This document shows, piece by piece, positions 2,259 through 56,739 of a DNA stretch of 64,000 nucleotides. The notes under the pieces were generated by a model. The model was not told the DNA's origin. It worked only from the letters and a program-made list of their open reading frames with translations, and searched no databases. Position 1 is the first letter of the stretch, and each line of letters opens with the position of its first letter. The DNA comes from Candidatus Liptonbacteria bacterium (GTDB lineage: Bacteria; Patescibacteriota; Minisyncoccia; UBA6257; 2-01-FULL-56-20), in the NCBI GenBank assembly GCA_016186635.1, contig JACPLI010000014.1, positions 804 to 64,803 on the forward strand. The letters are read 5' to 3'. The position numbers and the translations under genes were made by a program.

Positions 2259-3101
2259 ATGAGCGCGAGCGCAACAAGCGGAACAGGCACGGGCGGTGGA
2301 ACACCTCCAGCGGGCGGTGGAACACCTCCAGCGGGCGGTGGAACACCTCCAGCGGGCGGTGGAACACCTCCAGCGGGCGGTGGAACACCTCCAGTTCGGC
2401 GGCGTATCCTTATCGGACTCGCAATGGTAGTGGGTGCCGGACTCATCATCTTCGGCGCCTTCACGGCGGGTAAGAAATCAACGAGTGGTCCACCCTCAAA
2501 TCCTCCGGGGGTGGGCGGCGGGAGTACCAATGCGGTGCAACAAACCCAACCCAAGGGACAAAGCATGGCTAATCTCCCGCCTGGGTCGGGAGGGTCCACC
2601 GGCGGCACTGGCACCATCACTGCGGCTCCAGGGTCGGCCCTTGCCATCGGCAACCAACTCCATGTTCACATAGGGAAAGATGGGACGGTAACCACGGGGA
2701 CGAACACACCGTCAGGAGGACCACAAACTCCCGCGACAGGGCGATTCACTGCTGACGGACTCTTCGTGTTCTCATTGGAAGACGGCACAGGAGAAGTTGA
2801 GCCGTTTCCAAACGAACATGAATTCTGGGGGCTTCTCAACTACACCGGCACCAACACCACAAAGTGGGCGACAATTCCGGAGAGAGCACCGGATTTCGCC
2901 GTCACCCCGCAGAACATCGGGTTCTCCGTCCAATTCTCGCGGGGAGACGTGGAAGACCCCACGAACTGGACGCCGTGGTACAAGTTGTCGCCGACGGGGC
3001 CGGACGTTGATATCCCCGGAAAGCCGACGGCGTACCGCCTCCAACACACAAACAGTGTGGCGGCGGCGAGAATTCACCTTCTCTTCAAGAAAAGGTCCTA
3101 G
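2259..3101 (+). CDS. repeat-containing membrane-anchored/secreted protein
   Basis: N-terminus has 5 x GGGTPPA, one TM helix ILIGLAMVVGAGLIIFGAF, then Gly/Thr/Pro-rich ectodomain; no known domain. Confidence 0.6.
   Translation: MSASATSGTGTGGGTPPAGGGTPPAGGGTPPAGGGTPPAGGGTPPVRRRILIGLAMVVGAGLIIFGAFTAGKKSTSGPPSNPPGVGGGSTNAVQQTQPKGQSMANLPPGSGGSTGGTGTITAAPGSALAIGNQLHVHIGKDGTVTTGTNTPSGGPQTPATGRFTADGLFVFSLEDGTGEVEPFPNEHEFWGLLNYTGTNTTKWATIPERAPDFAVTPQNIGFSVQFSRGDVEDPTNWTPWYKLSPTGPDVDIPGKPTAYRLQHTNSVAAARIHLLFKKRS
2293..2398 (+). repeat. perfect tandem repeat 5 x 21 bp inside CDS
   Basis: unit ggcggtggaacacctccagcg repeated 5 times without mismatch, encoding (GGGTPPA)5. Confidence 0.85.
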
Positions 3102-4036: not shown

Positions 4037-6610
4037 CTAAATCACCACCACGCCAGCGACTCTATCGCCGGAGTTGAGGTTCATAATCCGCACGCCCTGC
4101 GCGGAGCGGCCCGTCTGGCGGACGCTTTTGAGCTCCGTGCGGATGACCTGCCCCTTTGCCGAGAGCGCGAGGAGTTCCGTCTCCTCGCCGAGGACGATGC
4201 CCGCAACCACCTTTCCCGTCTTCTCCGTCACCTTCGCCGTGCGAATCCCGGAGCCGCCGCGGTGCTGGGTTTTGTATTCCTTGAGCGGCGTCCGCTTGCC
4301 GAACCCCTTTTCCATCACCGCGAGGAGCTCCGCCGTGTCGCTCTTCTTCACCACGTCGAACCCCGCAACCGCGTCGCCGTGGCGAAGCCGGATGGCGCGC
4401 ACGCCCGCGGCGCCGCGCCCCATGGGCCTCGCCTGCGACTCCGCAAAGCGGATGGACTGGCCCTTCTCCGTCACGAGCACCACTTGGTCATCGCCCTTCG
4501 AGAGCCGGACCCACTTCAGCATGTCGCCTTTTTTTCCGCCGGAGGCGGATCCGGAGGTCCCTTTCCCGCCAGAGGCGGGTCCGCCTCGGGCGGAGGCGGA
4601 GAGCTTCATCCCGATAATCCCCGTGCGCCGGATATTTTCAAAGTCCTTCAAAGCGGTTTTCTTTATCATGCCGTTTTTGGTCACCATCACGAGATAGCGA
4701 TGAGCGATGAGTGATGAGTGATGAGTCTCCGATGCCTTGTTTCTTGCCCCTTGCTCGCCCCGTGGCGAAGCTGTACGGGGTTCCTTGTTACTCGATGGCA
4801 CATTGACGATCGCGCTTATGTTCTCGTCTGCGGGAATCTCAAGGAAATTGTGAATCGCTTTCCCCTTCGCGGTGCGGCTCGCGGCGGGAATCTCATACGC
4901 GCGCGTTTCGAATACTCTCCCGCGGCCGGTGAAGAAGAGTATCCGGTCGTGCGTGTTCGCGTGGAAGAAGTGCGAGAGGAAATCCTCCTCGGCGACATCA
5001 GACCCAATAAGCCCCTTGCCGCCACGCCGCTGGGCTTTGAAGGTGTCGGGCGGGAGGCGCTTCACATACCCCGACGCGGAGAAGGTAATAATTGCCTCTT
5101 CCTCGGGCACGAGGTCCTCGTCGGTCATCTCCTTCAAGGCATGCGCGACCACGTGCGTCCGGCGCGCCTCGCCATACTTCGCCTTGAGTTCCATGAGCTC
5201 CTTTTTCACCACCTCAAGCATCCGCGTGGGACTCTTCAAAATGAGCGTGAGTTCCTTGATGAGCGTGCGTTTTTCTTTAAGCTCGGCTTCGATTTTCTGC
5301 CGCTCCAATGCCGCGAGCGTCTGGAGCTTCATTTCCAAAATCGCGGCTGCCTGCGCCTCCGAGAGCGTGAAGTGCTTCATCAAGTTCGCCCTCGCGTCCT
5401 CGCGGTCCTTCGATTTCTTGATGGTGGCAATCACTTTGTCTATCGCATCAAGCGCCTTTGCGAGCCCCTCCAAAATATGCGCCCGCTCCTCCGCCCGCTT
5501 CAAGTCAAACTGCGTGCGGCGCTTCACCACCTCCCGCCGGTGCGCGACGTACGCGAGGAGCATCTCCTTCAAAGAGAAGAGTTCCGGCTGGATGCCGTCC
5601 CGCAAGGCAATCATGTTGAAATGGAAATCCTTCTGGAGGTCGGAGTGCTGGTAGAGCTGGTTTAAGATTTTCTGCGGCGCGGCATCGGACTTTAGTTCCA
5701 CCACGATGCGGAGCCCCTCGCGGTCGGACTCGTCGCGAAGGTCGCGGATGCCCTCGATTCTCTTCTCCTGCACAAGTTCCGCGATGTGCTTCACGAGCTC
5801 GGACTTGTTCACCTGGTAGGGAATCTCCGTAATCACGATGTCGAACCCCGCGCGCGTACTCTCTCCCTTCTTTCGCTCCACAATCTCCGCCTTCGCCCGG
5901 GTCGTGACCGCCCCCCGTCCCGTCGCGTATGCCGCCTTCACTGCCGCGCGGTCGTAAATCACGCCGCCCGTGGGAAAATCCGGCCCCTTCACATATTCGA
6001 GCAAATCCTCCGCCGCGGCGTTCGGCTTTTCGATAAGGAGCAGGGTTGCATCCACCACCTCCACCAAGTTGTGCGGCGGGATTGAGGTTGCCATCCCCAC
6101 CGCAATGCCCAAGGTGCCGTTCACGAGGAGGTTCGGAACCTTCGCAGGAAGCACCTTCGGCTCATCGCGGGTCGCATCGTAGTTCGGCTGCCAGTCCACC
6201 GTGTCTTTCTCGATATCAAACAGCATCTCCTCCGCGACTTTCGAGAGGCGCGCCTCCGTGTACCGCATCGCGGCGGGAGAATCCCCGTCCTGTGAACCAA
6301 AATTACCCTGGCCCCACACAAGGGGGTATCGCATGGAGAAGTCCTGCGCCATCCGCGCCAGCGTGTCGTAAATCGCCACGTCGCCGTGCGGGTGGTACTT
6401 CGCCATCGTCTCGCCCACCACGTTTGCCGACTTCCTGAATTTCGCGAGATGCGTGAGCCCTATGGACCACATGGTCCACAGCACCCTCCGGTGCACCGGC
6501 TTCAGCCCGTCGCGCACGTCCGGCAGGGCGCGCGCGACAATCACTGACATCGCGTAGTCGAGGTAGGATTCCTTTAACTCACTGGTGATTTCCCGTTTTT
6601 CGATATTCAT
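4037..6610 (-). CDS. gyrA: DNA gyrase subunit A
   Basis: 857 aa; N-terminal EITSELKESYLDYAMSVIVARALPDVRDGLKPVHRRVLW and catalytic-Tyr region AAMRYTEARL are GyrA hallmarks; C-terminal beta-pinwheel repeats. Confidence 0.95.
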   Translation of the reverse strand: MNIEKREITSELKESYLDYAMSVIVARALPDVRDGLKPVHRRVLWTMWSIGLTHLAKFRKSANVVGETMAKYHPHGDVAIYDTLARMAQDFSMRYPLVWGQGNFGSQDGDSPAAMRYTEARLSKVAEEMLFDIEKDTVDWQPNYDATRDEPKVLPAKVPNLLVNGTLGIAVGMATSIPPHNLVEVVDATLLLIEKPNAAAEDLLEYVKGPDFPTGGVIYDRAAVKAAYATGRGAVTTRAKAEIVERKKGESTRAGFDIVITEIPYQVNKSELVKHIAELVQEKRIEGIRDLRDESDREGLRIVVELKSDAAPQKILNQLYQHSDLQKDFHFNMIALRDGIQPELFSLKEMLLAYVAHRREVVKRRTQFDLKRAEERAHILEGLAKALDAIDKVIATIKKSKDREDARANLMKHFTLSEAQAAAILEMKLQTLAALERQKIEAELKEKRTLIKELTLILKSPTRMLEVVKKELMELKAKYGEARRTHVVAHALKEMTDEDLVPEEEAIITFSASGYVKRLPPDTFKAQRRGGKGLIGSDVAEEDFLSHFFHANTHDRILFFTGRGRVFETRAYEIPAASRTAKGKAIHNFLEIPADENISAIVNVPSSNKEPRTASPRGEQGARNKASETHHSSLIAHRYLVMVTKNGMIKKTALKDFENIRRTGIIGMKLSASARGGPASGGKGTSGSASGGKKGDMLKWVRLSKGDDQVVLVTEKGQSIRFAESQARPMGRGAAGVRAIRLRHGDAVAGFDVVKKSDTAELLAVMEKGFGKRTPLKEYKTQHRGGSGIRTAKVTEKTGKVVAGIVLGEETELLALSAKGQVIRTELKSVRQTGRSAQGVRIMNLNSGDRVAGVVVI
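4531..4600. repeat. GC-rich hairpin element inside gyrA (family CCGCCnnaGGCGGaTCC / TCCGCCTCGGGCGGA)
   Basis: ccgccggaggcggatcc ... cgccagaggcgggtccgcctcgggcggaggcgga; same motifs intergenic at 7629 and 33391; here translated as SASARGGPASGGKGTSGSASGGKKG. Confidence 0.55.
4697..4727. repeat. heptamer tandem array (GATGAGY)x4 in frame within gyrA
   Basis: gcgatgagcgatgagtgatgagtgatgagtc; minus-strand reading gives ETHHSSLIAHRY inside GyrA. Confidence 0.8.
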
Positions 6611-10197: not shown

Positions 10198-10268
10198 TCG
10201 GGGAGCCGAGAATCGAACTCGGACTACATGCTCCCAAAGCATGCGTACTACCACTATACGACTCCCCG
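10198..10268 (-). tRNA. tRNA-Pro (anticodon TGG)
   Basis: minus-strand cloverleaf CGGGGAG-TC-GTAT-AGTGGTA-GTAC-G-CATGC-TTTGGGA-GCATG-TAGT-CCGAG-TTCGATT-CTCGG-CTCCCCG-A. Confidence 0.85.
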
Positions 10269-10369
10269 GTGTATTTCTAGCGGGGCAAGAAGGACTCGTG
10301 CTACCGTTACACTACAGTCCGAAGCGCCACTTCAAATTACGCCTTTTTTCGGCTAGAATCAAACCGCTT

Positions 10370-10445
10370 GTCCCCGTAGCTTAACGGATAAAGCGGCTCC
10401 CTTCTAAGGAGTAGACTGCAGGTTCAAGTCCTGCCGGGGACACCA
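10370..10445 (+). tRNA. tRNA-Arg (anticodon TCT), CCA encoded
   Basis: GTCCCCG-TA-GCTT-AACGGATA-AAGC-G-GCTCC-CTTCTAA-GGAGT-AGACT-GCAGG-TTCAAGT-CCTGC-CGGGGAC-A-CCA. Confidence 0.9.
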
Positions 10446-11218
10446 TGAAACTCATCTCACTAAACGCGTTCGGCGGCAAGGCGTATGCACCGCTCATGGA
10501 GTTCGTGAAGGAGCATGCTCCAACGACGGACATTTTCTGCCTTCAAGAGATATTTTCTTCGCCATCGCCCGTACACGAGAGCCACGGGGCGCGCATGAAC
10601 CTCTTTGAAGAACTGGGTGCCGCACTTCCTGATTTCCAAGGGCTCCTTGCGTCAGAGCAGGATGGGTGGGACTTCCAAGGACCCGTTGGCTTCCCCGTCT
10701 CCATGGGCAACGCCTTGTTTGTCCGGCGCACATTCCCCATTGCATCGTCGGGTAACTTTTTCGTGTACCTCGCAAAAAATAAAGTGATTGACAACCAACA
10801 CTTTCCGCAAAGCGTCATCTATACACGCCTTGAAATACGGGGTGCGCGGCTCACCGTTGCCAATTTCCACGGCATCCCCCAGCCCGGGCATAAACTCGAC
10901 ACGCCGGAGCGGCTCGCGCAGTCGCAGCGCATTTGCGAGTTTTTGGCGCGCGAACCCGGCGCGAAGATTCTCTGCGGCGATTTCAACCTTCTCCCCGGCA
11001 CGCAGTCCCTTGCGCTGGTTGAGAAAGATATGCGGAACCTCATCACGGAATTCAGCATCGAGCGCACCCGGAGCCGGCTTTCCCCGTTTTTCGGCAAGCC
11101 CGACTTTCAACCCTTCGCGGACTACATATTCACCTCTCCCCGCATACACGCAACGCGCCTTGAAGCGCCCGACGTCCAAATCTCCGACCACTTGCCGCTC
11201 GTGCTCGAGTTTTCGTAA
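10445..11218 (+). CDS. endonuclease/exonuclease/phosphatase (EEP) family protein
   Basis: 257 aa; N-terminal DIFCLQE and C-terminal ISDHLPLVLEF are typical EEP catalytic motifs; ATG overlaps CCA of tRNA-Arg. Confidence 0.75.
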   Translation: MKLISLNAFGGKAYAPLMEFVKEHAPTTDIFCLQEIFSSPSPVHESHGARMNLFEELGAALPDFQGLLASEQDGWDFQGPVGFPVSMGNALFVRRTFPIASSGNFFVYLAKNKVIDNQHFPQSVIYTRLEIRGARLTVANFHGIPQPGHKLDTPERLAQSQRICEFLAREPGAKILCGDFNLLPGTQSLALVEKDMRNLITEFSIERTRSRLSPFFGKPDFQPFADYIFTSPRIHATRLEAPDVQISDHLPLVLEFS

Positions 11219-11225
11219 GAATATG

Positions 11226-11242
11226 TGTGCGCGCTGAGGGGA
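11226..11242. repeat. 17-bp direct repeat of tRNA-Val 3' end (att-like)
   Basis: tgtgcgcgctgagggga matches 11412-11428 (complement of tRNA-Val acceptor/T-stem 3' end). Confidence 0.7.
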
Positions 11243-11413
11243 AATCAAACGTCGCTTCGCTCCCTCACAACCCTCCGCCTACGCTAAAGCTTCGGCGGAC
11301 AAGTCGGTTTCTCCTCCCGCCTGCCCGCCGTAGTTTCATACGGAGGCGGGACCCCTCCTTCGGTTCGATCCCCTCAGCGCACTCAACAAACAAGATGGAT
11401 ATTGCTAATTTTG

Positions 11414-11485
11414 TGCGCGCTGAGGGGATCGAACCCCCGACCTACTGTGTGTAAAACAGTCGCTCTACCACTGAGCTAAGCGCGC
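11414..11485 (-). tRNA. tRNA-Val (anticodon TAC)
   Basis: GCGCGCT-TA-GCTC-AGTGGTA-GAGC-G-ACTGT-TTTACAC-ACAGT-AGGTC-GGGGG-TTCGATC-CCCTC-AGCGCGC-A. Confidence 0.9.
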
Positions 11486-11530: not shown

Positions 11531-11572
11531 AATTTAGCAGATTACATGCGGTCGCGTGTAATTCGCTAAATT
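11531..11572. repeat. imperfect palindrome aatttagcagattacatgcg-gtc-gcgtgtaattcgctaaatt
   Basis: same outer arms AATTTAGCA...TGCTAAATT as 8923-8963. Confidence 0.55.
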
Positions 11573-11727
11573 GACTTCAGATGCCGAAATAATATACTTT
11601 CAACAATTCCCATGCTTCTCACCCGCCGCATCTCAACCTGGTCCAGTTTTGTGAGAATCCCCCTCTCTTTCTGACCCTGCCTTCCGGCAGGCAGGCGAGA
11701 GGCGTTGCACCGTATGCGTGTACGGTA

Positions 11728-11751
11728 CCCCGCCTCCAGGCGGGGTTTTTG
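11728..11751 (+). terminator. rho-independent terminator
   Basis: ccccgcctccaggcgggg followed by TTTTT; a second hairpin ccgtatgcgtgtacgg lies just upstream. Confidence 0.65.
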
Positions 11752-23030: not shown

Positions 23031-23145
23031 AACTCGTTGTACGTTTTCGGTTTCGCCGCCCGTATCGCTTCACGTTGACGTCTTACATATGCCCACACCG
23101 ATACGGGCTACGACACCGTCACCGCTCAACACCAAGTAAAATAAG

Positions 23146-23210
23146 TGGGCCAGGAAGGACTCGAACCTTCGATCCTCTTGGTATAAGCAAGATGCTTTAG
23201 CCGCTAAGTC
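23146..23210 (-). pseudogene. tRNA-like fragment (anticodon arm with loop CTTATAC, T-arm, acceptor 3' strand) lacking matching 5' half
   Basis: minus strand ...GCA-TCTTG-CTTATAC-CAAGA-GGATC-GAAGG-TTCGAGT-CCTTC-CTGGCCC-A; complementary GGGCCAG occurs only ~520 nt upstream (approx 23663-23669). Confidence 0.4.
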
Positions 23211-23256
23211 CCGACGCTCCGGTCGGGACCCCGACCCTGCAAGGCGTCGGGGCTAC
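23197..23256. repeat. double-hairpin element R copy 1 (CCCCGAC..GTCGGGG / TCCCGACC-GGAGC-GTCGGGA / CTTAGCGGCtAAAGCA)
   Basis: near-identical unit at 23591-23660; related hairpin at 28706-28740. Confidence 0.6.
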
Positions 23257-23258
23257 TG

Positions 23259-23329
23259 TGGGCGCACTAGGAATCGGACCTAGGTCGGGCGTGTATAAGA
23301 CGCCTGCTTTGCCATTAAGCTATGCGCCC
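23259..23329 (-). tRNA. tRNA-Ile with rare anticodon TAT (UAU)
   Basis: GGGCGCA-TA-GCTT-AATGGCA-AAGC-A-GGCGT-CTTATAC-ACGCC-CGAC-CTAGG-TCCGATT-CCTAG-TGCGCCC-A; unusual T-loop TCCGATT. Confidence 0.75.
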
Positions 23330-23583
23330 ATCCTTATCTTCCCATCTCTCACTATCTTCTCAAGATAATCCTTTCTTTTCAACCTTTTCAGTCGCCTTTC
23401 AATCTCGCGAGCTTTTGCAAGCGTTGGAAACTCTTGAGAAAAAACGAACGCGAGATTCCCAAGCCGCATCGTGGACGGCGTATGACCGCCGAAGTGGTGC
23501 GTTAATCTTGCACCAATGTCGGTGGTACTCCCCACGTAAAACCTCCCGTCCCGCCCATTCTGCAATATATACACCCAAGCCAT
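23320..23583 (-). CDS. GIY-YIG nuclease family protein (small YhbQ/UPF0213-like)
   Basis: from ATG 23583: MAWVYILQNGRDGRFYVGSTTDIGARLTHH = GIY-YIG core; stop codon TAG lies inside tRNA-Ile positions 8-10. Confidence 0.7.
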   Translation of the reverse strand: MAWVYILQNGRDGRFYVGSTTDIGARLTHHFGGHTPSTMRLGNLAFVFSQEFPTLAKAREIERRLKRLKRKDYLEKIVRDGKIRMGA

Positions 23584-23590
23584 AGTACCT

Positions 23591-23660
23591 GCTTTGCCGC
23601 TAAGTCCCGACGCTCCGAGGTCGGGAGGCCACACCCCCGACGTGCTAGTCGGGGCGTCGA
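23591..23660. repeat. double-hairpin element R copy 2
   Basis: gctttgccgctaagtcccgacgctccgaggtcggga...cccccgacgtgctagtcgggg. Confidence 0.6.
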
Positions 23661-23687
23661 CCCTACTGGCCCGCGCGCTCCCCACTC

Positions 23688-24275
23688 CTACTGCTTCACT
23701 ATCGCGTCAAACCGGTCCATTGCCTGCCCGGCTTGGCCGTTGAACGTGTTGATTGCCTGCACTTCCGCGTTAATCTGGTTCACGAGCACCGCTACCTGCT
23801 TCGCCGAGCCGGGGACTCCCTTGAAACGCCCCTCGAGCGCCTGCAGGAGCTCGCTCAAGTAGTTGCTGTAGCTGATAAGCTTGTTTAAAAGCGCCAAGCG
23901 GCTCGCGATGGACTCAAGCGCCGCCTGCCGCGCCTCGAAGGACTGAATGCCGGAGAGCGCCTTCGTCATCGCGCCGATTTCGTCTGCGAGCGCCACCGCC
24001 TGGTTGCGAATCGCCTCACTCTGCTTCGTGGCATCGAGTGTAATGGCAAGCGCCTCGGAGAACTTCCCCTTCTTGTCGAGCTCGCTGATTTTCTCGATGC
24101 TCGTTCGGGAATCGTTCGAAAGGTTCACAATGTTTTGGGAGATGAGCGCTCCCCGAAGGCGGGCGTCTTGGAACTCCGAAGGGATTCCTTGCGAGAAGGA
24201 AAAGAGCCGGCTCGCGCCGTAGCCGGCGGCCACAATTACCACAAACGCAAGGAATAATTTGGTGCGGCGGGACAT
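23688..24275 (-). CDS. hypothetical membrane-anchored coiled-coil protein
   Basis: start at internal ATG 24275 (MSRRTKLFLAFVVIVAAGYGAS = TM anchor); remainder Ala/Gln/Leu-rich helical; track N-terminal extension overlaps tRNA-Gly. Confidence 0.45.
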   Translation of the reverse strand: MSRRTKLFLAFVVIVAAGYGASRLFSFSQGIPSEFQDARLRGALISQNIVNLSNDSRTSIEKISELDKKGKFSEALAITLDATKQSEAIRNQAVALADEIGAMTKALSGIQSFEARQAALESIASRLALLNKLISYSNYLSELLQALEGRFKGVPGSAKQVAVLVNQINAEVQAINTFNGQAGQAMDRFDAIVKQ

Positions 24276-26318: not shown

Positions 26319-26472
26319 GGAGTAATCGCTAATAATGCGAATTATAATTTAATAACGCGAATTATTCAAACGTGGGAGGAGTATTCGCGAATAATGCAAA
26401 TATGGATTAAATAATGCGAATGGAATCTATTTGCATTATTTGCCGGAGATTCGCGATATTCGCGATTACTCC
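26319..26472. repeat. palindromic AATAAYGCRAAT-family element, copy 2 (longest, ~155 bp)
   Basis: ggagtaatcgctaataatgcgaat...attcgcgaataatgcaaat...aataatgcgaat...attcgcgatattcgcgattactcc between hppA 3' end and clpP 5' end. Confidence 0.7.
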
Positions 26473-26665
26473 TAGAGGAACGGCACCAGAAGTAAAGCAA
26501 TAATGTTGATTATCTTGATTACCGGATTGATTGCGGGTCCCGCCGTGTCCTTGTAGGGGTCGCCCACGTCGCTCGCTTCACTCACTCCCTCACAACCTCT
26601 CGGTTTTGAGTGATTTCCTACACGGTGAAACTCCCGTTTCCCCGACCCCCTTCCCGTGGGCGACC

Positions 26666-28690
26666 CTAGAGAAAAGGAACAAGCAACAGCGCAATTATAT
26701 TAATAATCTTTATCACAGGATTTATGGCTGGTCCAGCAGTATCTTTATACGGGTCGCCCACCGTGTCGCCCGTAACCGCCGCTTTATGCGCCACAGACCC
26801 CTTCCCGCCGAGATTCCCCTCTTCAATATATTTTTTCGCGTTATCCCACGCAGCGCCGCCGGAAGTCATTGCGAGCGCCACGAAAAGCCCCGTCACGATA
26901 GAACCCAAGAGAAGTCCTCCAAGCGCCGCCGCGCCGAGCGCCCATGCGACGAGTATGGGGATCACGACCGGCAAGAGCGCCGGCACCACCATTTCCCGAA
27001 TCGCCGCGCGCGTCACGATATCCACGCACTTCGCATAGTCCGGCAACGCTTTTCCCTCCATAATTCCAGGAATCTCCCTAAACTGCCGGCGCACTTCAAC
27101 CACTACGCTCCCCGCCGCCTTCCCCACCGCGCGCATCGAGATTGAAGCGAAGAGATAGGGGATGAGCCCGCCGATGAAGAGTCCTGCGATTACCTTCGGG
27201 TCGGTGAGGTCAAACGACTGCCCCGCATACTTCGCGCCGAGGTCGTGCACATACGAGGCGAAGAGCACCACCGCCGCAAGCCCTGCCGAGCCGATGGCAT
27301 ACCCCTTTGTTACCGCCTTTGTCGTGTTTCCCACGGAGTCAAGCGCATCCGTCACTTCGCGCACCGAGTCGGGAAGCCCCGCCATCTCCGCAATGCCGCC
27401 CGCATTGTCCGTAATCGGACCGAAGGCGTCAATCGCGACCACAATTCCTGTCATCGAGAGCATGCTCATCACCGCGAGCGCCACGCCGTAGAGTCCGGAG
27501 ACGGCATACGCACCAAGGATGCCCCCCACAATCACCAGCACGGGGAGTGCCGTCGCCTCCATTCCCACCGCGAGACCGGCGATGACGTTCGTGCCGTGGC
27601 CGGTTTCGGATGCCTGTGCAATCGCACGCACCGGACGGAACTTTTTCGACGTGTAGTACTCCGTAATAAGCACGATGAGCGCGGTCACTGCAATCCCGAG
27701 TACCATGGGGAGAAAAAGCTCCCATTGGCTCAGCGCGCCGCCTGCTCCCCCGGAGGACTGAAAGAGTCCCGCAACGCGGCCGCTCACGAACCAAAACCCG
27801 ATAAGCGCAAGCGCGCTTGCACCCGCAAGTCCCTTATACAGCGCCCCCATAATATACGCGCTCTTCGCGGAGCTCCCCGCAGGAAGGTGGACAAAGAAAA
27901 GCCCCAGCACCGACGCAATCGCGGCGACCCCCCCCATGAGAAGAGGGAGCGTTACCGCAACAGCGGTGCCGGGGAACGTAAGCGCCCCAAGAATCATTGC
28001 GGCAATCGCCGTCACTGCATACGTCTCAAAAAGGTCTGCCGCCATACCCGCGCAGTCTCCCACGTTGTCGCCGACATTGTCGGCAATCACCGCCGGGTTC
28101 CGCGGGTCGTCTTCAGGAATCCCCGCTTCCACTTTGCCTACAAGGTCCGCGCCCACATCGGCCCCCTTCGTAAAAATGCCGCCGCCCAAACGGGCGAAGA
28201 CAGATATCAAGCTTCCCCCGAAACCGAGTCCGATCAAGGCGCTCACGTTGTTCGTCGCCGCATAGAATCCCGCAACCGAGAGCAGCGCAAGCCCTACCAC
28301 GAGCAAACCCGTCACCGCGCCTCCTTCAAACGCCACCGCAAGCGCATCTTTAAATCCCCGCTTCGCCGCCTCCGCGGTTTTCACGTTCGCGCGGACGGAC
28401 ACGTGCATACCAACATACCCTGCCGCTCCCGACGCAACCGCCCCCACAATAAAACCGGCCATCGTTGTTGCATCCACGAGTACCCCAATGAGCGCCGCAA
28501 TGACGACTGCCACTCCCGCAATGGTCTTGTACTGCCGGTTCAAAAACGCCTTCGCGCCCGTGCGTATCGCACCCGCAATTTCTTCCATACGCGCATCGCC
28601 CCCGGGACGCTTCGCAATCCGCCCGCCAAGCCACGCGGCAACAAGAATGGAGAGCGCGCCCGCACCTACCGCAAATGATACTGGATTCAT
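26666..28690 (-). CDS. hppA: membrane-bound H+-translocating pyrophosphatase
   Basis: 674 aa, ~16 TM; [20 protein letters not shown] and [11 protein letters not shown] motifs. Confidence 0.95.
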
Positions 28691-30230: not shown

Positions 30231-30593
30231 CTAGCACACATTCTCATAGTGGCGGATGTCCTCTCCCCCGTCATCCAGGAGCGTAATCGCCACGAGGTCA
30301 ATGCGCCAACCCCTTTTGTCGCGGAAAAGCTCGGCGTGCTCGTTCGCGAATAGTGAGCACGTTCTCCTCATCTTTGCAATCTTCGCCCGCGACATTTGGT
30401 CTTCCGGCTGGAGCCGCCCCTCCCGCATCGTCTTTACCTCCACAAACACAAGTGTCCCGTTGGGACTCTTTGCCACAATATCCAGTTCCCCCCATGGCTT
30501 GCGATAGTTTCTCTCCAAAACCCGATAGCCCTTTTTAGAAAGGGATTTGCAGGCGATTTCTTCGCCGAGTTTCCCGATTTCACTCTTTTCCAT
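30231..30593 (-). CDS. yraN: YraN/UPF0102 family endonuclease
   Basis: GKLGEEIACKSLSKKGYRVLERNYRKPWGELDIVAKSPNGTLVFVEVKTMREG matches UPF0102 motif. Confidence 0.75.
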   Translation of the reverse strand: MEKSEIGKLGEEIACKSLSKKGYRVLERNYRKPWGELDIVAKSPNGTLVFVEVKTMREGRLQPEDQMSRAKIAKMRRTCSLFANEHAELFRDKRGWRIDLVAITLLDDGGEDIRHYENVC

Positions 30594-30630
30594 TACATTG
30601 TGTGCACGCGTTAAACATTATATGATTTAT

Positions 30631-31071
30631 ATGAATCGTAAAGCGATAAACATGGAATTATCCTACGAATACATACGCGGTGTGGTTGAAGGAGAAGGAT
30701 GTTTTACATTCTCAAAGTCAAACGGGAGAAAAATTCCTGCTTTTGCAATAAGAATGCACATTCGAGACAAGAGCTTGATATGTGCAATACGAGATACTCT
30801 TGGATTAAGAAATAAGGTTTATGTCTATGATTATCAAGCAAAGGACAGGATAGAAAGAGCACCACAGGCAACGCTGATAGTAAGAGAATTTGGTCAACTC
30901 AAAAACATAATAGTTCCATTCTTTTACAAAAGGTTAAGGGGGAACAAACGAAATCAGTTTGAACTGTGGTTAGAGAAGATAGGTAACGATCCAAGCGTAC
31001 CAGAGAGTTTTAAATTCATATACAAGATTTACAAAGCAGGGTTCTATGATAAGAATCCAAAGTTTCCATAG
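30631..31071 (+). CDS. LAGLIDADG-family homing endonuclease (single-motif, free-standing)
   Basis: YIRGVVEGEGCFTF is a LAGLIDADG motif variant; ~147 aa; sits in AT-rich islet 30594-31290; start could also be ATG 30622 or 30652. Confidence 0.65.
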   Translation: MNRKAINMELSYEYIRGVVEGEGCFTFSKSNGRKIPAFAIRMHIRDKSLICAIRDTLGLRNKVYVYDYQAKDRIERAPQATLIVREFGQLKNIIVPFFYKRLRGNKRNQFELWLEKIGNDPSVPESFKFIYKIYKAGFYDKNPKFP

Positions 31072-45556: not shown

Positions 45557-45602
45557 TAATTCGCGTTATTTGCCCCAATTCGCATTATTCGCGATTACTC
45601 CT
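45557..45602. repeat. palindromic AATAAYGCRAAT-family element, copy 4
   Basis: taattcgcgttatttgccccaattcgcattattcgcgattactcc ending 1 nt before ATG 45603. Confidence 0.65.
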
Positions 45603-46109
45603 ATGCAATTCCAAGTTCCCCAATTTATCGAGACGGAAGACAAGATTGTGGGGCCTTTCACGCTCAAGCAGTTTATCGCGGTCGGCGCCGCAGTAGGCGT
45701 CTCGCTTGTCCTGTACCTCGTCGTCGTGCCGTGGCTCTGGCTCGTGCTCTCTATTCCCCTCGTCGGCGGCGGGATTGCCTTCGCCTTCGTGAGGGTAGGG
45801 GGGCGCGCGCTCCCTTCGGTCGCGCTCGCGGCGCTCCGCTATCTCTGGAAACCGCAAACGTACGTGTGGCAGCCGGAAGCGCAAGGAACAAGGGACAAGG
45901 AACAAGGAACGAAAACGGAAGAAAAGACGGGCGGGCTTTCGCTTGAGGAAGTGCTCTCGGGACTCTCCCTGCGGCGGACATGGCAGAAGCTCCAAACCGG
46001 CGCGGAGAAGCTCTCGCCGGGGCTCTTCCTCGCTCAGCGCGACCGCTACTCCATCTACCGGAAGCGGAGCGGGGAGAGGAGCGCCGCGAGGAGGATAGAT
46101 TACCGCTAG
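45603..46109 (+). CDS. PrgI/VirB3-like small membrane protein
   Basis: start at ATG 45603; two TM helices FIAVGAAVGVSLVLYLVVVPWLWLVLSIPLVGGGIAFAFV; position directly upstream of VirB4-like ATPase as in Gram-positive-type T4SS. Confidence 0.5.
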   Translation: MQFQVPQFIETEDKIVGPFTLKQFIAVGAAVGVSLVLYLVVVPWLWLVLSIPLVGGGIAFAFVRVGGRALPSVALAALRYLWKPQTYVWQPEAQGTRDKEQGTKTEEKTGGLSLEEVLSGLSLRRTWQKLQTGAEKLSPGLFLAQRDRYSIYRKRSGERSAARRIDYR

Positions 46110-46112
46110 AGG

Positions 46113-46168
46113 ACAAGTGGTGAGTGATGAGTGGTGAGTGGGGAGTGGTTAAGTGGCGAGTGATGAGG
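46113..46168. repeat. heptamer array (GTGGTGA/GTGATGA/GTGGGGA...)x8
   Basis: ggacaagtggtgagtgatgagtggtgagtggggagtggttaagtggcgagtgatgagg. Confidence 0.8.
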
Positions 46169-46582
46169 GAATACAATGCAATGCAAATCAAATCGTATAA
46201 AGAACTTACTGTTTGGAAAAAATCGGTTGTTCTTGTGGAAGAAGTTTACTGTTGCACCGCAAAACTTCCGAAGGAGGAGTTATATGGTCTCGTTATGCAA
46301 GCGCGCCGCGCAGTAGTTTCAATCCCGTCAAGCATCGCCGAAGGTTCGAGAAGGAAAAACGGCATGGAATATCTGCAGTACATAAGGATTGCGGATGGAT
46401 CATCGGCAGAACTTGAGACACAACTCATCATAATAAAACGCCTCTACCCTCACGTAAATGTCGCGAGAGCAGAACAGCTGCTTGATGAAGTGCAACGAAT
46501 GCTGCACGCAATGCGGCGGACTCTCGAATCTAAAATCAGGCTTACCCGAACACCTCCAAGCGAGTACAATGATAAAGAATAG
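46163..46582 (+). CDS. four-helix-bundle protein (23S rRNA intervening-sequence protein family)
   Basis: KSYKELTVWKKSVVLVEEVY...LPKEELYGLVMQARRAVVSIPSSIAEGSRR...ADGSSAELETQL matches PF05635-type proteins; lower-GC islet; start 46163 or 46181. Confidence 0.65.
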   Translation: MREYNAMQIKSYKELTVWKKSVVLVEEVYCCTAKLPKEELYGLVMQARRAVVSIPSSIAEGSRRKNGMEYLQYIRIADGSSAELETQLIIIKRLYPHVNVARAEQLLDEVQRMLHAMRRTLESKIRLTRTPPSEYNDKE

Positions 46583-46652
46583 CCACCACTTCCCTCACCC
46601 CTCACCACTTATCGCTCATCACTTATCACTCGCCACTTATCACTCAAAACTC
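46582..46652. repeat. heptamer array (CCTCACC/ACTTATC/ACTCGCC...)x10 abutting virB4-like start codon
   Basis: ccaccacttccctcacccctcaccacttatcgctcatcacttatcactcgccacttatcactcaaaactc then ATG 46653. Confidence 0.8.
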
Positions 46653-49079
46653 ATGCCCAAAGAATTCGCCAACGCCCAGGACCTCGTCGCGGTCAAGGAA
46701 ATCCGAGACGGGACGCTCATCTTGAAGGACGGCGGCCTCCGCCAGATACTTATGGTGAGCGGCGTGAACTTCGCGCTCCGCTCGGAGACGGAGCAAGGCA
46801 TCATCACCGCCAGCTACCAGAACTTTTTGAACACGCTCGATTTCCCCCTGCAGCTCATCATCCACTCCCGGAAAATCAACATTGATACATATCTCGAGAA
46901 GCTCGCCGCGTACGAGCAGAAAGAGCCCTCCCCCCTCCTCCGCAACCAAAACGCCGAGTACCGCGAGTTCATCAAGGGGTTCGTGGACAAAAACGCGATT
47001 ATGGAGAAAACATTCTTCGTGGTCGTGCCGTGGACGACCGTCTCACTCCCCACCACGAGGAGTCTTATGCGATTCATCCCGTTTCTCGGGAGAAGCAAGG
47101 GGGCGGAAGCGGCAGAGGCGAAAGAGAAGGAAGAGTCCTTCGAGGAGTCGCTGGAACAGCTCCAGCAGCGCGTCTCCCAGGTCGCCGAGGGGCTTGCCGC
47201 CGTGGGGCTTGAAGCGGTCCCTCTGGGCGACCGCGAGCTTGCGGAGATGCTCTACAACTTCTACAACCCCGAATCCGTCGAGCGCGAAAACCTTGCGCTT
47301 CCCGCCGACGAGAAAGGCGGGGCGAATGCAACGGCCCAAACCCAAGGCGCGGAGAAACCCGTGAAGAAGGGCGGAATTGGCGATGTCTCAAAAATCATTG
47401 CGCCGGCAGGCGCGGAGGTGACGCCGAATTTCGTCAAAATCGGCAGCAAGCTCGCAAAAACGTTTTTCGCGCTCTCCTACCCGAGGTACCTTGCAACCGG
47501 CTGGTTTGAGCCCATCGTGAACCTCCCCAGCCTTCTCGACGTCTCCATCTTCGTGAATCCCATGAACACGGGGGATGCCCTCAAAAACCTCCGCAAGAAA
47601 GCCGCCCAGCTCGAATCGCAAATCGCGGATACGGAAGAGAAAGGGCTCGTGCGCGACCCCCTGCTCGAAACCGCGCTCCGCGACGTGGAATCCCTTCGGG
47701 ACACGCTCCAGCAATCGGAGGAAAAGCTCTTCCACGCCGCCCTCTACATCACGATTTACGCGGACGCGCCGGACCAGCTTGCGCGGCTTGAGGGGCAAAT
47801 CACTTCGCTCATGGAAGCGAAGCTTGTTTACATCAAACCCGCCCTCTTCGAGCAGCTTGAGGGGCTCCTCTCGGTTTTTCCCTTCGGAGGCGACCGCCTC
47901 AATATCGGGACGCCGATGAACTCGAGCCCCATCTCCTCTTTTTTCCCATTCGTCTCCGAAGACCTCACCTCGAACGAGGGCATCATGTACGGCATCAACC
48001 GCCACAACAATAGCTTGGTCATATTCGACCGGTTTTCTCTCGAGAACGCAAATCAGGTCGTCTTTGCAAAATCCGGCTCCGGAAAATCCTACTCCACGAA
48101 ACTCGAAATCATCCGTTCGCTCATGGTGGGCGCCGAAGTCATCGTGATTGACCCCGAGAACGAATACCAGCGCCTCGCGGAGGCTTTGGGCGGGAGCTTC
48201 TTCAGCATTTCGCTCTCGTCCGAAGAGCACATCAACCCGTTCGACATCCCCATCATTCCGGAAGGGGAGTCTCCTTCGGACATCCTCCGGTCGCACGTCG
48301 TGAACCTCGCGAGCTTGGTGAAGCTCATGCTCGGGAAAATCACGCCCGAGGAAGACGCGCTCCTCGACCGCGCGATTACCGAAACCTACGCCTCGCGCGA
48401 AATCGTGGCGGGGGAAGATTTTTCCGGCAAGGAAGCCCCGCTCCTTGAGGACCTCGAAACCGTGCTCCGCAACCTTGAGGGCGGGCGCGCGATGGCGGAA
48501 CGGCTCTATAAGTACACGAAGGGGTCCTTCGCGGGATTCGTAAACCAGCACACGAATATCGACATCGGCAACCGCTTCATCGTCTTCTCCATCCGCGACC
48601 TTGAGGAGGAGCTCCGCCCGATTGCGATGTTCGTCATCCTGAACTTCATCTGGAACCTCATCCGCGCGAAGTTGAAACGCCGGATTCTCATGATTGACGA
48701 AGCATGGATTATGATGAAAAACGAAGACTCCGCCACGTTCCTCTTTGGGCTCGTGAAGCGCGCCCGGAAGTACTACCTTGGCGTTTCCACCATCACGCAG
48801 GACGTCGAGGACTTCCTGAGGTCTCCCTACGGCAGGCCCATCATCACGAATTCCTCGGTACAGCTCCTTTTGAAACAAGCGCCTGCGACGATTGATATCG
48901 TGGCAAAAGCGTTTGACCTCACGGAAGCCGAAAAATCGCTTCTCTTGGGCGCGGAGGTCGGCACGGGGCTCTTCTTCGCGGGGAAAAAGCACGTCGCCAT
49001 CCAGATTGTCGCCTCGTATTTCGAGGACCAGATTGTAACGACAAACCCCGCACAGCTCCTTGAGGAAAAATCCCGCTAG
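46653..49079 (+). CDS. VirB4/TrbE/PrgJ-family T4SS ATPase
   Basis: start at ATG 46653 (MPKEFANAQDLVAVKEIRDGTLILKDGG = typical Gram-positive-type VirB4 N-terminus); Walker A FAKSGSGKSYS; Walker B LMIDEAW; C-terminal VirB4 domain. Confidence 0.85.
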   Translation: MPKEFANAQDLVAVKEIRDGTLILKDGGLRQILMVSGVNFALRSETEQGIITASYQNFLNTLDFPLQLIIHSRKINIDTYLEKLAAYEQKEPSPLLRNQNAEYREFIKGFVDKNAIMEKTFFVVVPWTTVSLPTTRSLMRFIPFLGRSKGAEAAEAKEKEESFEESLEQLQQRVSQVAEGLAAVGLEAVPLGDRELAEMLYNFYNPESVERENLALPADEKGGANATAQTQGAEKPVKKGGIGDVSKIIAPAGAEVTPNFVKIGSKLAKTFFALSYPRYLATGWFEPIVNLPSLLDVSIFVNPMNTGDALKNLRKKAAQLESQIADTEEKGLVRDPLLETALRDVESLRDTLQQSEEKLFHAALYITIYADAPDQLARLEGQITSLMEAKLVYIKPALFEQLEGLLSVFPFGGDRLNIGTPMNSSPISSFFPFVSEDLTSNEGIMYGINRHNNSLVIFDRFSLENANQVVFAKSGSGKSYSTKLEIIRSLMVGAEVIVIDPENEYQRLAEALGGSFFSISLSSEEHINPFDIPIIPEGESPSDILRSHVVNLASLVKLMLGKITPEEDALLDRAITETYASREIVAGEDFSGKEAPLLEDLETVLRNLEGGRAMAERLYKYTKGSFAGFVNQHTNIDIGNRFIVFSIRDLEEELRPIAMFVILNFIWNLIRAKLKRRILMIDEAWIMMKNEDSATFLFGLVKRARKYYLGVSTITQDVEDFLRSPYGRPIITNSSVQLLLKQAPATIDIVAKAFDLTEAEKSLLLGAEVGTGLFFAGKKHVAIQIVASYFEDQIVTTNPAQLLEEKSR

Positions 49080-49085
49080 AGCCCT

Positions 49086-49153
49086 GTCATTCCCGCGTAT
49101 GCGGGAATCCAGGAAAGTGAGATAAGGTTCTGGGTTCCCGCTTCCGCGGGAAC
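49086..49153. repeat. ~70-bp double-hairpin element, left copy (GTCATTCCCGCGtatGCGGGAATC ... GGTTCCCGCTTCCGCGGGAAC)
   Basis: direct repeat of 49903-49968 (about 85% identical); the pair brackets gene 49189-49854. Confidence 0.7.
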
Positions 49154-49188
49154 AACAGAAAGAATACATTCGACCCCTGCACACTACC

Positions 49189-49854
49189 ATGGAACCCGAG
49201 CCAAAAATCTCCGTCGTTGAGGCGATATGGATAGGAACCGTATTCGCGCTCATAGACATTGCGGAAGTCGCCATTGTATTCTTCGGGCTCGACGATTTCT
49301 GGATTCTCGACGCGCTCGCGTCAACGATATTTGTGTATCTCGTCCTCAAGACAATCCCGCCGTTCCGCCAGCTCATCACATGGATTGGAGAACTCTTCCC
49401 GTATGTGGGCGCGCTCCCGCTCCTCACCGCAGGATGGCTCTGGACCACGTGGGCAGACTGGCATCCCGAGGGACTCGGCGCGAAGACGCTCGCCGTGGCG
49501 GAAACGGCGGCGTCCGCGGCAAAGGGAGGAGGGGGAGGAAAAGGCGCCGCGGAAGGCGGGGGAGGGGGCACAGCGGGCGCGCCCGCGCAGGCGCCGCAGG
49601 CACGCGCCGCCGAACAAGCCCCAGCCGGCGCGGGAACAACCGCAGAATCCGCTCCGGCATCCGCCGCGCCGGGCGGAGCGCCGGGAGCGCAACCGGTTCC
49701 CGATGAGGCGCTTGGGGTTCAAAAAGAGCCGATGGAAAAGGTACGGGAGCTCATGGAAAAACCGCTCCCGCCGGAAGAACCCGTCTCCTCAACCGAACCG
49801 CCAGCGCCCCCTCCTCCGAAACTTGAGGATGTGCGCCGGAGGGAAATGCTCTAG
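49189..49854 (+). CDS. hypothetical membrane protein with Gly/Ala/Pro-rich tail
   Basis: 221 aa; 3 TM helices; KGGGGGKGAAEGGGGGTAG low complexity; flanked by direct repeats. Confidence 0.45.
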   Translation: MEPEPKISVVEAIWIGTVFALIDIAEVAIVFFGLDDFWILDALASTIFVYLVLKTIPPFRQLITWIGELFPYVGALPLLTAGWLWTTWADWHPEGLGAKTLAVAETAASAAKGGGGGKGAAEGGGGGTAGAPAQAPQARAAEQAPAGAGTTAESAPASAAPGGAPGAQPVPDEALGVQKEPMEKVRELMEKPLPPEEPVSSTEPPAPPPPKLEDVRRREML

Positions 49855-49867
49855 AATGAAGGAGGAT

Positions 49868-50641
49868 ATGAATACCCGCGAATTACAACCTCCTCTTCCT
49901 TGTCATTCCCGCGAAAGCGGGAATCTAGGGGCACTAAGGGAGATCCTGGGTTCCCGCTTCTGCGGGAACGACAGAACGGCTCGCTTTATCGTCTCAGTTG
50001 CATTGCTTATTGTAATCGCAATGCTTCTGCCGCACGCGTACGCGCAAACCGAGCCGCAGGTCATCATCAGCTGGCAGGCGCACACCTATACCCCTCCCGG
50101 CTACGCCGGAAAGGCGCTCTCGACTGGCGGCTCAAAAGTGAGCGCGTCGCTTGATGTGCTCCACGGAGGGAAGCTTGCCGACCTCTCCGGAGAGACCTTC
50201 TACTGGTACCTCAACAACCGCCTCATTTCGCGCGGCAGGGGGCTCACGAGCGTTTCGCTCCGCGCGCCGGAGGAACTGCGCGGCTCATTTTCGCTCCGCG
50301 TCGAAGCCCTTTCTTACCGCGGCGGCGCCCTGCTCCGCGCCGTGAACATCCCCATCGTCCGCCCCGAGGCCGTGCTTGCGGCGCCTTTCCCCGACGCAAA
50401 AGTTTCCTCGCCGCTCTCCCTCCGCGGCATACCCTTTTTCTTCAACGTCACGGACCCCTTGGAGCTCGTCACGCGGTGGACGGTGAACGGCGCGCCCGCG
50501 TCGCAGACAGGCAACCCCACGGAACTCACTGCAACCATCCAAGGCGCCGCCGGCAGCGCGCTCTCCATAGCGCTCTCGTTCCTCAATCCCGCGTTTGATT
50601 TCGAGGCCGCGCAGGCGTCGGCAACATTCACGCTCAAATGA
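49868..50641 (+). CDS. hypothetical secreted protein
   Basis: ATG 49868 (or 49856) after aaggagga; N-terminal 40 aa are translated hairpin repeat, then signal-like FIVSVALLIVIAMLLPHAYA-QTEP; true start uncertain. Confidence 0.4.
   Translation: MNTRELQPPLPCHSRESGNLGALREILGSRFCGNDRTARFIVSVALLIVIAMLLPHAYAQTEPQVIISWQAHTYTPPGYAGKALSTGGSKVSASLDVLHGGKLADLSGETFYWYLNNRLISRGRGLTSVSLRAPEELRGSFSLRVEALSYRGGALLRAVNIPIVRPEAVLAAPFPDAKVSSPLSLRGIPFFFNVTDPLELVTRWTVNGAPASQTGNPTELTATIQGAAGSALSIALSFLNPAFDFEAAQASATFTLK
49903..49968. repeat. ~70-bp double-hairpin element, right copy
   Basis: gtcattcccgcgaaagcgggaatc...ggttcccgcttctgcgggaac. Confidence 0.7.
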
Positions 50642-56604: not shown

Positions 56605-56739
56605 CCCACACACCATCCCCACCCCTCTTGCCATTTCCTCTTTGCGCTATATGCATGCCGCCGCTCCATCCCCATATCCACACACCTAACAGTAACAGCA
56701 GTAACAATAATCTATTTATCCTTTATACTACTTATTACT
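56605..56739. promoter_or_regulatory. dnaA-dnaN intergenic region, candidate oriC segment
   Basis: DnaA-box-like tatccaca at 56675-56682, ttatcc at ~56716; AT-rich; heptamer array (AGTAACA)x3 ... TTATTAC abutting dnaN ATG. Confidence 0.4.

Follow-up and report, generated by a model that had tools for sequence, protein, structure and literature searches.

A small non-coding element in a tRNA-Val gene probably belongs to a recurrent family of structured, gene-end-restoring insertions in Patescibacteria

Islands, ICEs and IMEs that rely on tyrosine integrases, together with CIMEs, insert at the 3' end of genes and carry a substitute end that keeps the gene intact, leaving an attL/attR direct repeat and a displaced native end that decays. 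In tRNA genes the crossover lies in the T-loop and, in fact, a direct repeat of the tRNA 3' end from the T-loop onward is the classical pattern of tRNA-targeting tyrosine integrases; rpmG is a reported target of gene-3'-end tyrosine-integrase elements in streptococci. In other systems the recombination site is a folded single strand. CTXphi-type IMEX reportedly integrate through a folded single-stranded attP, in which hybrid site, cargo, inverted site copy, about 90 nt and a further hybrid site follow one another and two inverted target-like copies fold into a stem mimicking the duplex target; in integrons the attC site is set by the folding of one specific strand, and the cassettes have no recombinase of their own. 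MITEs, Correia, RPE and REPIN sequences are small, non-coding, hairpin-forming and non-autonomous, whereas in IS110 bridge RNA, IS200/IS605, TnpB omega-RNA and group II EBS/IBS systems a target-complementary segment stands beside a structured scaffold. Here, we describe an element that resembles each of these systems in part: it works like a gene-end-restoring integrative element, and it fails the defining tests of integrase island, MITE, tmRNA, group I intron, IMEX and known guided insertion sequences.

The whole stretch of DNA that was analysed, of 64 kb and hereafter called the window, comes from a genome of Candidatus Liptonbacteria (Patescibacteria/CPR), the name that one source attaches to an identical Exo_endo_phos protein, and contains on its minus strand a tRNA-Val(UAC) gene at 11414-11485 (ARAGORN; Rfam tRNA, 72.9 bits). 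As a first-pass annotation of this DNA had pointed out, the 17-mer TGTGCGCGCTGAGGGGA is present exactly at 11226-11242 and again, as the 3' end of this gene, at 11412-11428, where it comprises the last 15 bases of tRNA-Val (T-loop positions 59-60, the 3' strands of T-stem and acceptor, and the discriminator A) and 2 trailer bases. With up to 3 mismatches allowed, this word has 3 matches in the window against 0.27 expected, a number reached in 0 of 100 shuffles. The inverted copy of the T-arm and acceptor, also reported in that annotation, is real and longer than had been thought, since 11362-11386 is complementary to 11411-11435 at 92% over 25 nt, and the GC hairpin seen between the repeats was located at 11275-11349. 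The duplication is not an assembly artefact, because three independent Logan assemblies (SRR12113424, -422 and -420) are identical base for base to the window from 10220, 10223 or 10233 to 11441.

On the minus strand, the interval 11226-11428 represents a non-coding insertion of 186 bp, placed in the tRNA-Val T-loop, which supplies the gene with a new 3' end (X1) and leaves it intact, the original end (X2) being displaced downstream. Read on the tRNA strand, the order is X1 at the gene end, a spacer, an inverted arm (X'), a structured core and the displaced native end X2, all of them on the minus strand. The gene takes its last bases from X1 (11412-11428), a 17-nt identity block, TCCCCTCAGCGCGCACA, which in the repeat comparison runs from the end of the T-loop to the discriminator plus CA; as the gene-contiguous copy, it acts like the core of an attL. 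Between the end of tRNA-Val and X' lies the 24-nt spacer (11387-11410), a position that in several other family members is occupied by a terminator-like hairpin. X' (11362-11386, TTGAGTGCGCTGAGGGGATCGAACC) is the reverse complement of tRNA-Val from G53 and the T-loop to the 3' end, and this target-complementary arm stands immediately 5' of the core. The core, 111 nt long (11251-11361), is supported by a 23/24-nt match to another locus, L033, by the covariance model R1 and by its fold; it is made of a 12-nt 5' conserved block, GAAGGAGGGGTC (11350-11361), a 75-nt GC-rich hairpin (11275-11349) in place of the family helices P2 and P3, and a 24-nt 3' conserved block, AGGGTTGTGAGGGAGCGAAGCGAC (11251-11274), where the 3' block of the family is kept as GGTTGTGAGGGAGCGAAGCGAC. 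The core closes with GCGAC at 11251-11255, after which X2 (11226-11250, GTTTGATTTCCCCTCAGCGCGCACA) begins with G53, on the strand of tRNA-Val. The T-loop of X2 has degenerated and reads GTTTGATTT, its last 17 nt equal X1 and, as a displaced original tRNA end in decay, X2 acts like the core of an attR. The att-like pattern proposed earlier is found in this form, with X1 within an intact tRNA and X2 as the displaced end, and no ORF lies between the direct repeats.

The tRNA-Val element is probably a member of a family that recurs in Patescibacteria and has no entry in Rfam. When the interval was compared by short-word BLAST with 80 related loci, obtained through a neighbouring gene, the 3' block of the core (ACGTCGCTTCGCTCCCTCACAACC on the plus strand) matched L033 at 23/24 nt, and L033 has the layout of the tRNA-Val copy but beside a different tRNA: tRNA end, terminator-like hairpin, partial inverted copy, core and a direct 15-nt copy of the tRNA end. 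A metagenome scan with TGTGAGNGAGCGAAGCGACG found further members after tRNA-Leu(UAA) in L090 (L092 and L094 are identical to it), after a tRNA-fMet-like sequence in L096 and after the ribosomal protein L33 gene in L097 (Pfam L33, E 6e-20), whereas a second motif search returned another copy in L033, after tRNA-Val. The covariance model R1, built from 5 of these sequences with the window left out, hit the tRNA-Val interval (32.6 bits, E about 4e-7) and, more strongly, a second copy in the window (26546-26669, minus strand; 65.2 bits, E about 5e-17), and since the window had no part in the model we count both hits in favour of family membership. The model also found copies after tRNA-Thr and tRNA-Trp in L097, one in L053 and one in L011, the last of which stands outside the resolved set. 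In total, 11 distinct copies were seen. The ten resolved ones come from 6 different sequences, that is the window and 5 distinct loci (three further loci are copies of one of these), and lie at tRNA-Val and an H+/Na+-pyrophosphatase gene in the window, at an unidentified tRNA and tRNA-Val in L033, at tRNA-Leu in L090, at the tRNA-fMet-like sequence in L096, at tRNA-Thr, L33 and tRNA-Trp in L097, and at tRNA-Arg in L053. In L053, the matching X1 is found 0.77 kb upstream in tRNA-Arg(CCU), and an orphan ORF of 131 aa occupies the interval; X1 and X' are here separated by 0.65 kb of cargo, and the family unit can therefore carry cargo. This ORF gave no match in Pfam or PADLOC and no homologue was found for it. 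The cores at L33 and tRNA-Leu are 94% identical despite their different targets and copies within one genome are more diverged, which implies that a change of target does occur. A limited literature search, which included a paper on tRNA introns in Patescibacteria (PMC13011429), found no description of such elements, and the family of small structured elements is apparently undescribed.

All ten resolved copies are oriented in the sense of their target gene and are located near its 3' end, at sites that are strongly conserved in the cases examined (the universal tRNA T-loop and an invariant pyrophosphatase motif). Each duplicates the stretch from X to the gene end, with an identical block of 11-39 nt; at L33, for example, the two copies are identical over 39 nt, after which their codons differ synonymously. 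X' matches, as a reverse complement, the first 10-25 nt of X and lies directly against the core on its 5' side, and in 10/10 copies the core ends in GCGAC, the next base being the G with which X2 opens; in tRNA targets this G is G53, so that the junction falls at the start of the T-loop. The start-to-start spacing is 138-201 bp in 9/10 copies, the exception being the cargo-bearing one in L053. A terminator-like hairpin stands between the gene end and X' in 5/10 copies; in older copies the better pairing partner of X' is X1, not the core-adjacent X2, and displaced tRNA ends decay.

The family consensus comprises a closing stem, P1, formed by X' and X, the variable hairpin P2, an invariant 13-nt joiner, the hairpin P3 and a conserved 3' joiner; in terms of sequence, the core blocks are GAnnGAGGGGTC at the 5' side, P2, J2/3 GUGUAGGAAAUUA, P3 CUCAAAACC/GGUUGUGAG and GGAGCGAAGCGAC at the 3' side, with compensatory variants of P3 reading UUCAAAACC/GGUUUUGAA and UUCAGAACC/GGUUCUGAA. 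In the alignment fitted to the model, and hence biased towards structure, 94% of cells are paired, whereas shuffles give 77% and controls with slid partners 40-57%, both sides have changed in 16 pairs, and G-U cells number 24 against 4 A-C cells; part of the P1 signal in the model is T-arm sequence common to tRNA targets. From the excess of G-U over A-C, it is the gene-sense strand that folds, either as RNA or as single-stranded DNA. The tRNA-Val interval folds at -83.9 kcal/mol on the minus strand (z -5.8) and at -64.6 kcal/mol on the plus strand (z -4.3), and an RNA of the plus strand was rejected on this weaker fold together with the orientation of the family and its G-U bias. The stem of X' and X2 is present in the minimum-free-energy fold of the tRNA-Val copy, and the pyrophosphatase copy folds with z -3.0 and a 12-bp P1. 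The tRNA-Val copy is without J2/3 and without the 5' strand of P3, so that at 32.6 bits its membership rests on the two conserved blocks and on its architecture. Its 75-nt GC hairpin is built of short motifs dispersed across many Patescibacteria loci and, because this hairpin has replaced P2 and P3, the copy is probably an old, degenerate and immobile fossil.

The second copy in the window carries all the conserved core features of the family and shows what was inserted. Its host is the H+/Na+-pyrophosphatase gene (26666-28690, minus strand), which has a normal gene end. On this strand, X1 (GTGGGCGACCC, 26751-26761) lies inside the gene and is followed by tail R1 (26666-26750), an element-borne substitute for the last 28 codons and the stop; X' (GGTCGCCCAC, 26656-26665), fully complementary to the first 10 nt of X, comes directly after the stop codon; then come an 88-nt core (26568-26655) in which P2, P3 and the conserved joining regions are well preserved and, at 26472-26567, X2 with tail R2, the displaced native end of 31 codons and a stop, starting with GTGGGCGACC. 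X1 with R1 and X2 with R2 encode the same 31 residues with 25 synonymous differences. Selection on both tails was considered as an explanation for the zero non-synonymous differences and is unneeded, the C-terminal 31 residues being identical in 89/120 homologues. GC3 is 0.35 in tail R1, 0.68 in tail R2 and 0.69 +/- 0.07 in the rest of the gene, and the two nearest relatives match R2 at 81 and 80 of 96 positions and R1 at 75 and 70. On this sequence evidence the gene-contiguous tail R1 is foreign and the displaced tail R2 native. Furthermore, the gap from the stop codon to clpP is 348 nt here and 42-135 nt in four relatives with 80-87% protein identity and the same NusA-PPase-ClpP synteny, whose short gaps are empty sites; a within-species empty site, looked up through the ClpP protein, is not on record. 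A foreign tail, a native tail and empty relatives together indicate that a 194-bp foreign unit, X1-R1-X'-core, was inserted exactly 5' of GTGGGCGACC, its left boundary falling within the 11-nt identity block and its right boundary at the end of the core. An independent Logan contig confirms the left junction and the first 29 nt of this core.

Taken jointly, these observations make it probable, and clearly more so than any other explanation, that 11226-11428 is a family insertion in tRNA-Val belonging to a unit that is mobile as a whole, guided by X' and served by an enzyme acting in trans. Any mechanism has to accommodate foreign DNA that extends only from X1 to the core end at the pyrophosphatase gene, a right junction that is invariant and a left junction inside an identity block, a target-complementary arm beside a conserved scaffold folded as a single strand, and an element without coding capacity. 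We suggest that the unit X-(gene end)-X'-core would move whole between genomes and enter by conservative exchange inside the short identity block X, with X' selecting the site by pairing with X on the gene-sense strand in single-stranded form. In the route that we favour, the X':X stem would be closed by the core, by analogy with CTXphi and integron attC, whose attachment sites are folded single strands, and the unit would recombine with the chromosomal X at the foot of this stem; the enzyme would be supplied in trans rather than encoded by the element. If the element is mobile, we would, as a rough weighting, put a folded single-stranded DNA site first, though well short of a majority, then some route outside those named here, and, somewhat behind and level with each other, an RNA intermediate (ribozyme or reverse transcription) and a double-stranded mini-attP used by an ordinary integrase. 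The RNA route, alternatively pictured as guide-directed cleavage and ligation with reverse transcription, has against it, in its simple co-transcriptional form, the terminator-like hairpins found before X' in half of the copies. Simple versions of the mechanism have to face the fact that X' and the carried gene end must be renewed together for each new target. The preference of X' for X1 in older copies also weighs against our reading, and neither an enzyme nor a circular, excised or transcribed form of the element was seen.

Several known processes were considered for the duplicated ends and rejected. Plain homologous recombination or SDSA does not explain why the foreign DNA is confined exactly to X1 through the core end, and would require one target X to do duty for the two arms; a fixed-length target-site duplication or an in-situ duplication is at variance with a tail R1 that is foreign by GC3; and the template and variable repeats of a DGR are excluded by differences between R1 and R2 that are not adenine-specific. 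The family also departs from MITEs and the related repeats, since its inverted repeats are copies of each target rather than constant element ends: from one copy to the next the inverted arms are entirely different, each matching its own local target, target-site duplications of fixed length are absent, the identity blocks vary from 11 to 39 nt, and the duplicated part, 11 to about 100 nt long, is an orthologous gene end that has diverged. The integrated layout of the family is the one left by CTXphi, the separation between X' and X2, about 90 nt in that phage, being the 111-nt core at tRNA-Val and the 88-nt core at the pyrophosphatase gene. However, CTXphi is reported to insert always at dif by means of the host XerCD whereas the family targets tRNA T-loops and coding sequences, the family stem varies in sequence with the gene while its loop is conserved, and neither a genome of a single-stranded DNA phage nor any involvement of Xer or dif was seen. 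Integrons show the reverse arrangement, with conserved attC stem ends (R and L boxes) and a variable loop; their cassettes insert at attI and not in genes, and no IntI is present here.

A more specific version, which we regard as tentative, is that of a programmable, nucleic-acid-guided insertion, in which the scaffold would recruit a trans-acting (or ribozyme) activity that cuts and joins exactly 5' of the guide-paired sequence. Equally tentatively, the cassette of such a guided system would be protein-less and about 190 nt long, with X' as a guide of 10-25 nt between a substitute gene end and a conserved scaffold of about 90 nt. One scaffold would in this way be able to colonise both T-loops of tRNAs and conserved sites in protein-coding genes while sparing the host gene. 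The succession of X', core and gene-end copy resembles the guide, ribozyme and 3' exon of a trans-splicing group I ribozyme. In contrast to known guided elements, which are not known to carry or duplicate the end of their target gene, the family has no protein gene, and its core of about 90 nt has no Rfam match to those RNAs; comparison of the cores with Rfam was negative for the window copy with E allowed up to 10, and for the copies in L090, L096 and L097 with E up to 1. The hammerhead, hairpin, HDV and twister ribozymes were rejected in the absence of any Rfam match and of their core motifs on inspection by eye, and TnpA/TnpB and DEDD recombinase domains are absent from the window by Pfam.

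If the joint reading of a mobile, X'-guided unit is correct, the tiny genomes of Patescibacteria carry selfish DNA that spares its host by bringing a spare gene end, and its site appears to be chosen by a short complementary arm beside a folded scaffold and not by a site-specific protein of its own. Gene-end restoration, folded single-strand attachment sites and guide-directed targeting would then be linked in one minimal, protein-less unit, and the family would point to a trans-acting activity. On the practical side, these units confuse annotation by creating partial tRNA copies, duplicated gene tails and broken short-read contigs, and they may be a cause of unusually uniform gene termini in Patescibacteria.

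The first-pass annotation had read the locus as an integrase-mediated insertion followed by deletion of the element, or else as a miniature tRNA-derived element, and each proposal holds in part. Insertion into the T-loop with restoration of the gene is what we find, and the element is indeed miniature. What does not hold is the tRNA-derived origin, since the tRNA-like pieces are copies of the target and change with it, the targets include two protein genes, and the conserved part has no similarity to tRNA. The other proposal, that an integrase-bearing island or prophage in the 3' end of tRNA-Val lost its interior and left attL and attR as a CIME-like remnant, is unlikely in our judgement, even though the direct repeat of the tRNA 3' end fits the tyrosine-integrase pattern and longer forms exist, as in L053. 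A small element with a conserved structured core recurs across targets, the 186-bp unit being one of its diverged copies, and independent deletions would not converge on the same core and the same narrow size in nine of ten copies. Neither integrase nor remnant accompanies the attL/attR-like repeats of tRNA-Val, none is near any resolved copy, and by Pfam the window contains no integrase, transposase or reverse transcriptase, nor any recombinase among 50 of its ORFs (6 neighbours, 40 further ORFs, a GIY-YIG ORF and 3 more covered by the same searches). Compared with such islands, the family element is small (140-200 bp), serves many targets with one core, has a target-complementary arm about 90 nt from the target that changes with it, and shows in its core an RNA-like, single-strand covariation with G-U asymmetry rather than the conservation of a double-stranded protein site. 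Finally, IMG/VR contains no exact match to the core motifs and BLAST of the core against phage and plasmid collections was negative, which speaks against an island or prophage and led us to reject a phage or plasmid origin.

Slightly less likely still is that the core is a structured RNA, either beneficial to the host (in 3'-end processing or stability) or autonomous, such as a self-cleaving ribozyme, in a unit that is not mobile DNA; its closing stem would then happen to use the upstream copy of the gene end, and the duplications would be by-products. Conserved sequence, covarying helices, G-U pairs on the sense strand, a strong predicted fold and a sense orientation downstream of expressed genes throughout are all what such an RNA would show. 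It does not account for a substitute end that is foreign at the pyrophosphatase gene or for relatives that are without the whole unit; moreover, divergence is seen between copies within a genome, whereas other contigs have near-identical cores at different genes, the terminator-like hairpins precede X' in half of the copies, and the displaced tRNA ends decay.

It is very improbable that the locus reflects only a local rearrangement, in which the tRNA-Val end was partly duplicated and inverted without any element being involved. This locus is rearrangement-prone in L011, L034, L056 and L058, and tRNA-Val lies here on the minus strand but on the plus strand in relatives with the same tRNA-Pro/tRNA-Arg/Exo_endo_phos synteny, i.e. 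it is inverted with respect to them, and these relatives offer no empty tRNA-Val site of matching orientation. However, the interior blocks are common to unrelated loci, as the 23/24-nt match and the covariance-model hit demonstrate, the same layout recurs at nine other resolved genes, and the 13-mer GAGCGAAGCGACG is not a ubiquitous dispersed repeat, since among 87 loci it occurs only in L033 and in the window's own Logan contigs L001-L007.

Least credible of all, to the point of being negligible, is a tmRNA, a tRNA-like RNA or an intron-bearing tRNA gene: an acceptor/T-arm-like helix of 13 bp is possible between X' and X2, but D and anticodon arms are lacking, the helix is not tRNA-like at protein-gene targets, ARAGORN predicts no tmRNA, as the first-pass annotation had already concluded, no known Rfam family covers 11226-11412 (the best being tmRNA_permuted at 15 bits against a gathering score of 47), and Intron_gpI (RF00028) has no match in the window, where tRNA-Val is uninterrupted. 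[quoted passage not shown] A broken plus-strand tRNA-Val with introns was also considered, since relatives have a plus-strand tRNA-Val with upstream 5' fragments, and was dropped because the interior blocks match elements at other genes.

In the window, as in the related locus L033, the tRNA-Val gene lies on the minus strand (11414-11485), while it is found on the plus strand in L008, L010, L011, L012, L022, L034, L056 and L058, relatives sharing the tRNA-Pro/tRNA-Arg/Exo_endo_phos synteny of the window. Since the flanks, namely the Exo_endo_phos gene and a small ORF, are both unchanged in orientation, the inversion is limited to the tRNA segment. This small ORF consists of 20 codons (MLLTRRISTWSSFVRIPLSF*, 11612-11674, plus strand) and belongs to a compact unit (11571-11750, plus strand) preceding a CofE-like gene, in which a strong sigma-70-like promoter (TTGACT-16-TATACT, 11571-11598, plus strand) is located upstream of the ORF and an intrinsic terminator (11727-11746, plus strand) downstream of it. 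The ORF is kept, with synonymous changes, immediately 3' of the tRNA-Val of L010, and the region may correspond to a leader peptide/attenuator or to a small RNA.

In four of these relatives the tRNA-Val site is nested, intact genes being enclosed by fragments of other tRNA-Val copies (L011 4790-5170, L034 4800-5210, L056 1060-1330 and L058 1790-2030). The fragments break off after TTTA, which corresponds to position 35/36, the reported site of group I introns in Patescibacteria (PMC13011429); the Rfam group I models gave no match at these nested sites. L011 also harbors, at 5188-5290 on the minus strand, a core of the element family of small structured insertions (38.5 bits) that is devoid of a clear target-complementary arm (X') or gene-contiguous end (X1) and is oriented head-to-head to the outer tRNA-Val. 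In L010, Rfam identified a group I intron (61 bits) at 2825-3068, where relatives have tRNA-Phe(GAA), and this segment is probably an intron-bearing tRNA overlooked by ARAGORN.

A nested mosaic is also present in the window at the tRNA-Ile(UAU) locus (23145-23690, minus strand). It begins with a 5' fragment (GGGCCAGTA), after which come a structured insert of some 60 nt (GGGTCGACG...CGTCGGGACT) and a small ORF of the GIY-YIG type (Pfam E 2e-13) that overlaps, in its final codons, an intact tRNA-Ile (23258-23329). Beyond this tRNA, the insert occurs a second time, fused to the body of another, low-scoring tRNA-Ile (23145-23217), the 3' acceptor of which shows a match to the fragment far upstream, all of these parts being on the minus strand. 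The arrangement looks like a homing-endonuclease cassette carrying its own replacement tRNA, and the same motif and ORF type occur at the tRNA-Val of L008 and L011. A free-standing LAGLIDADG endonuclease ORF is encoded at 30547-31071 (plus strand; Pfam E 4e-8), near which neither rRNA nor a group I intron was detected.

Short GC-rich motifs (GGCGGGCAGGC, CCTGCC..GGCAGG and CTACGCTAAAGCTTCGG) are scattered across many Patescibacteria loci, including the window (11319-11329, 11676-11696 and 53658-53668). They are contained in the variable P2 hairpins of the element family and are also found in-frame within coding regions, for example in the Exo_endo_phos ORF of L029 (4500-4560).

Across the 120 Patescibacteria homologues of the H+-pyrophosphatase compared (P0121-P0240), whose overall identity is only 73-87%, the 31 residues of the C-terminus are the same in 89 proteins. 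Could the horizontal spread of element-borne gene tails contribute to this uniform C-terminus? Genes resembling type IV secretion/conjugation components, encoding a PrgI-family protein, a VirB4/TraG-like ATPase and a T4SS pilin, are located at 45570-51747 of the window; they belong to the core chromosome, fairly close to dnaA/dnaN (55243-57849), and might provide a route for the passage of single-stranded DNA.
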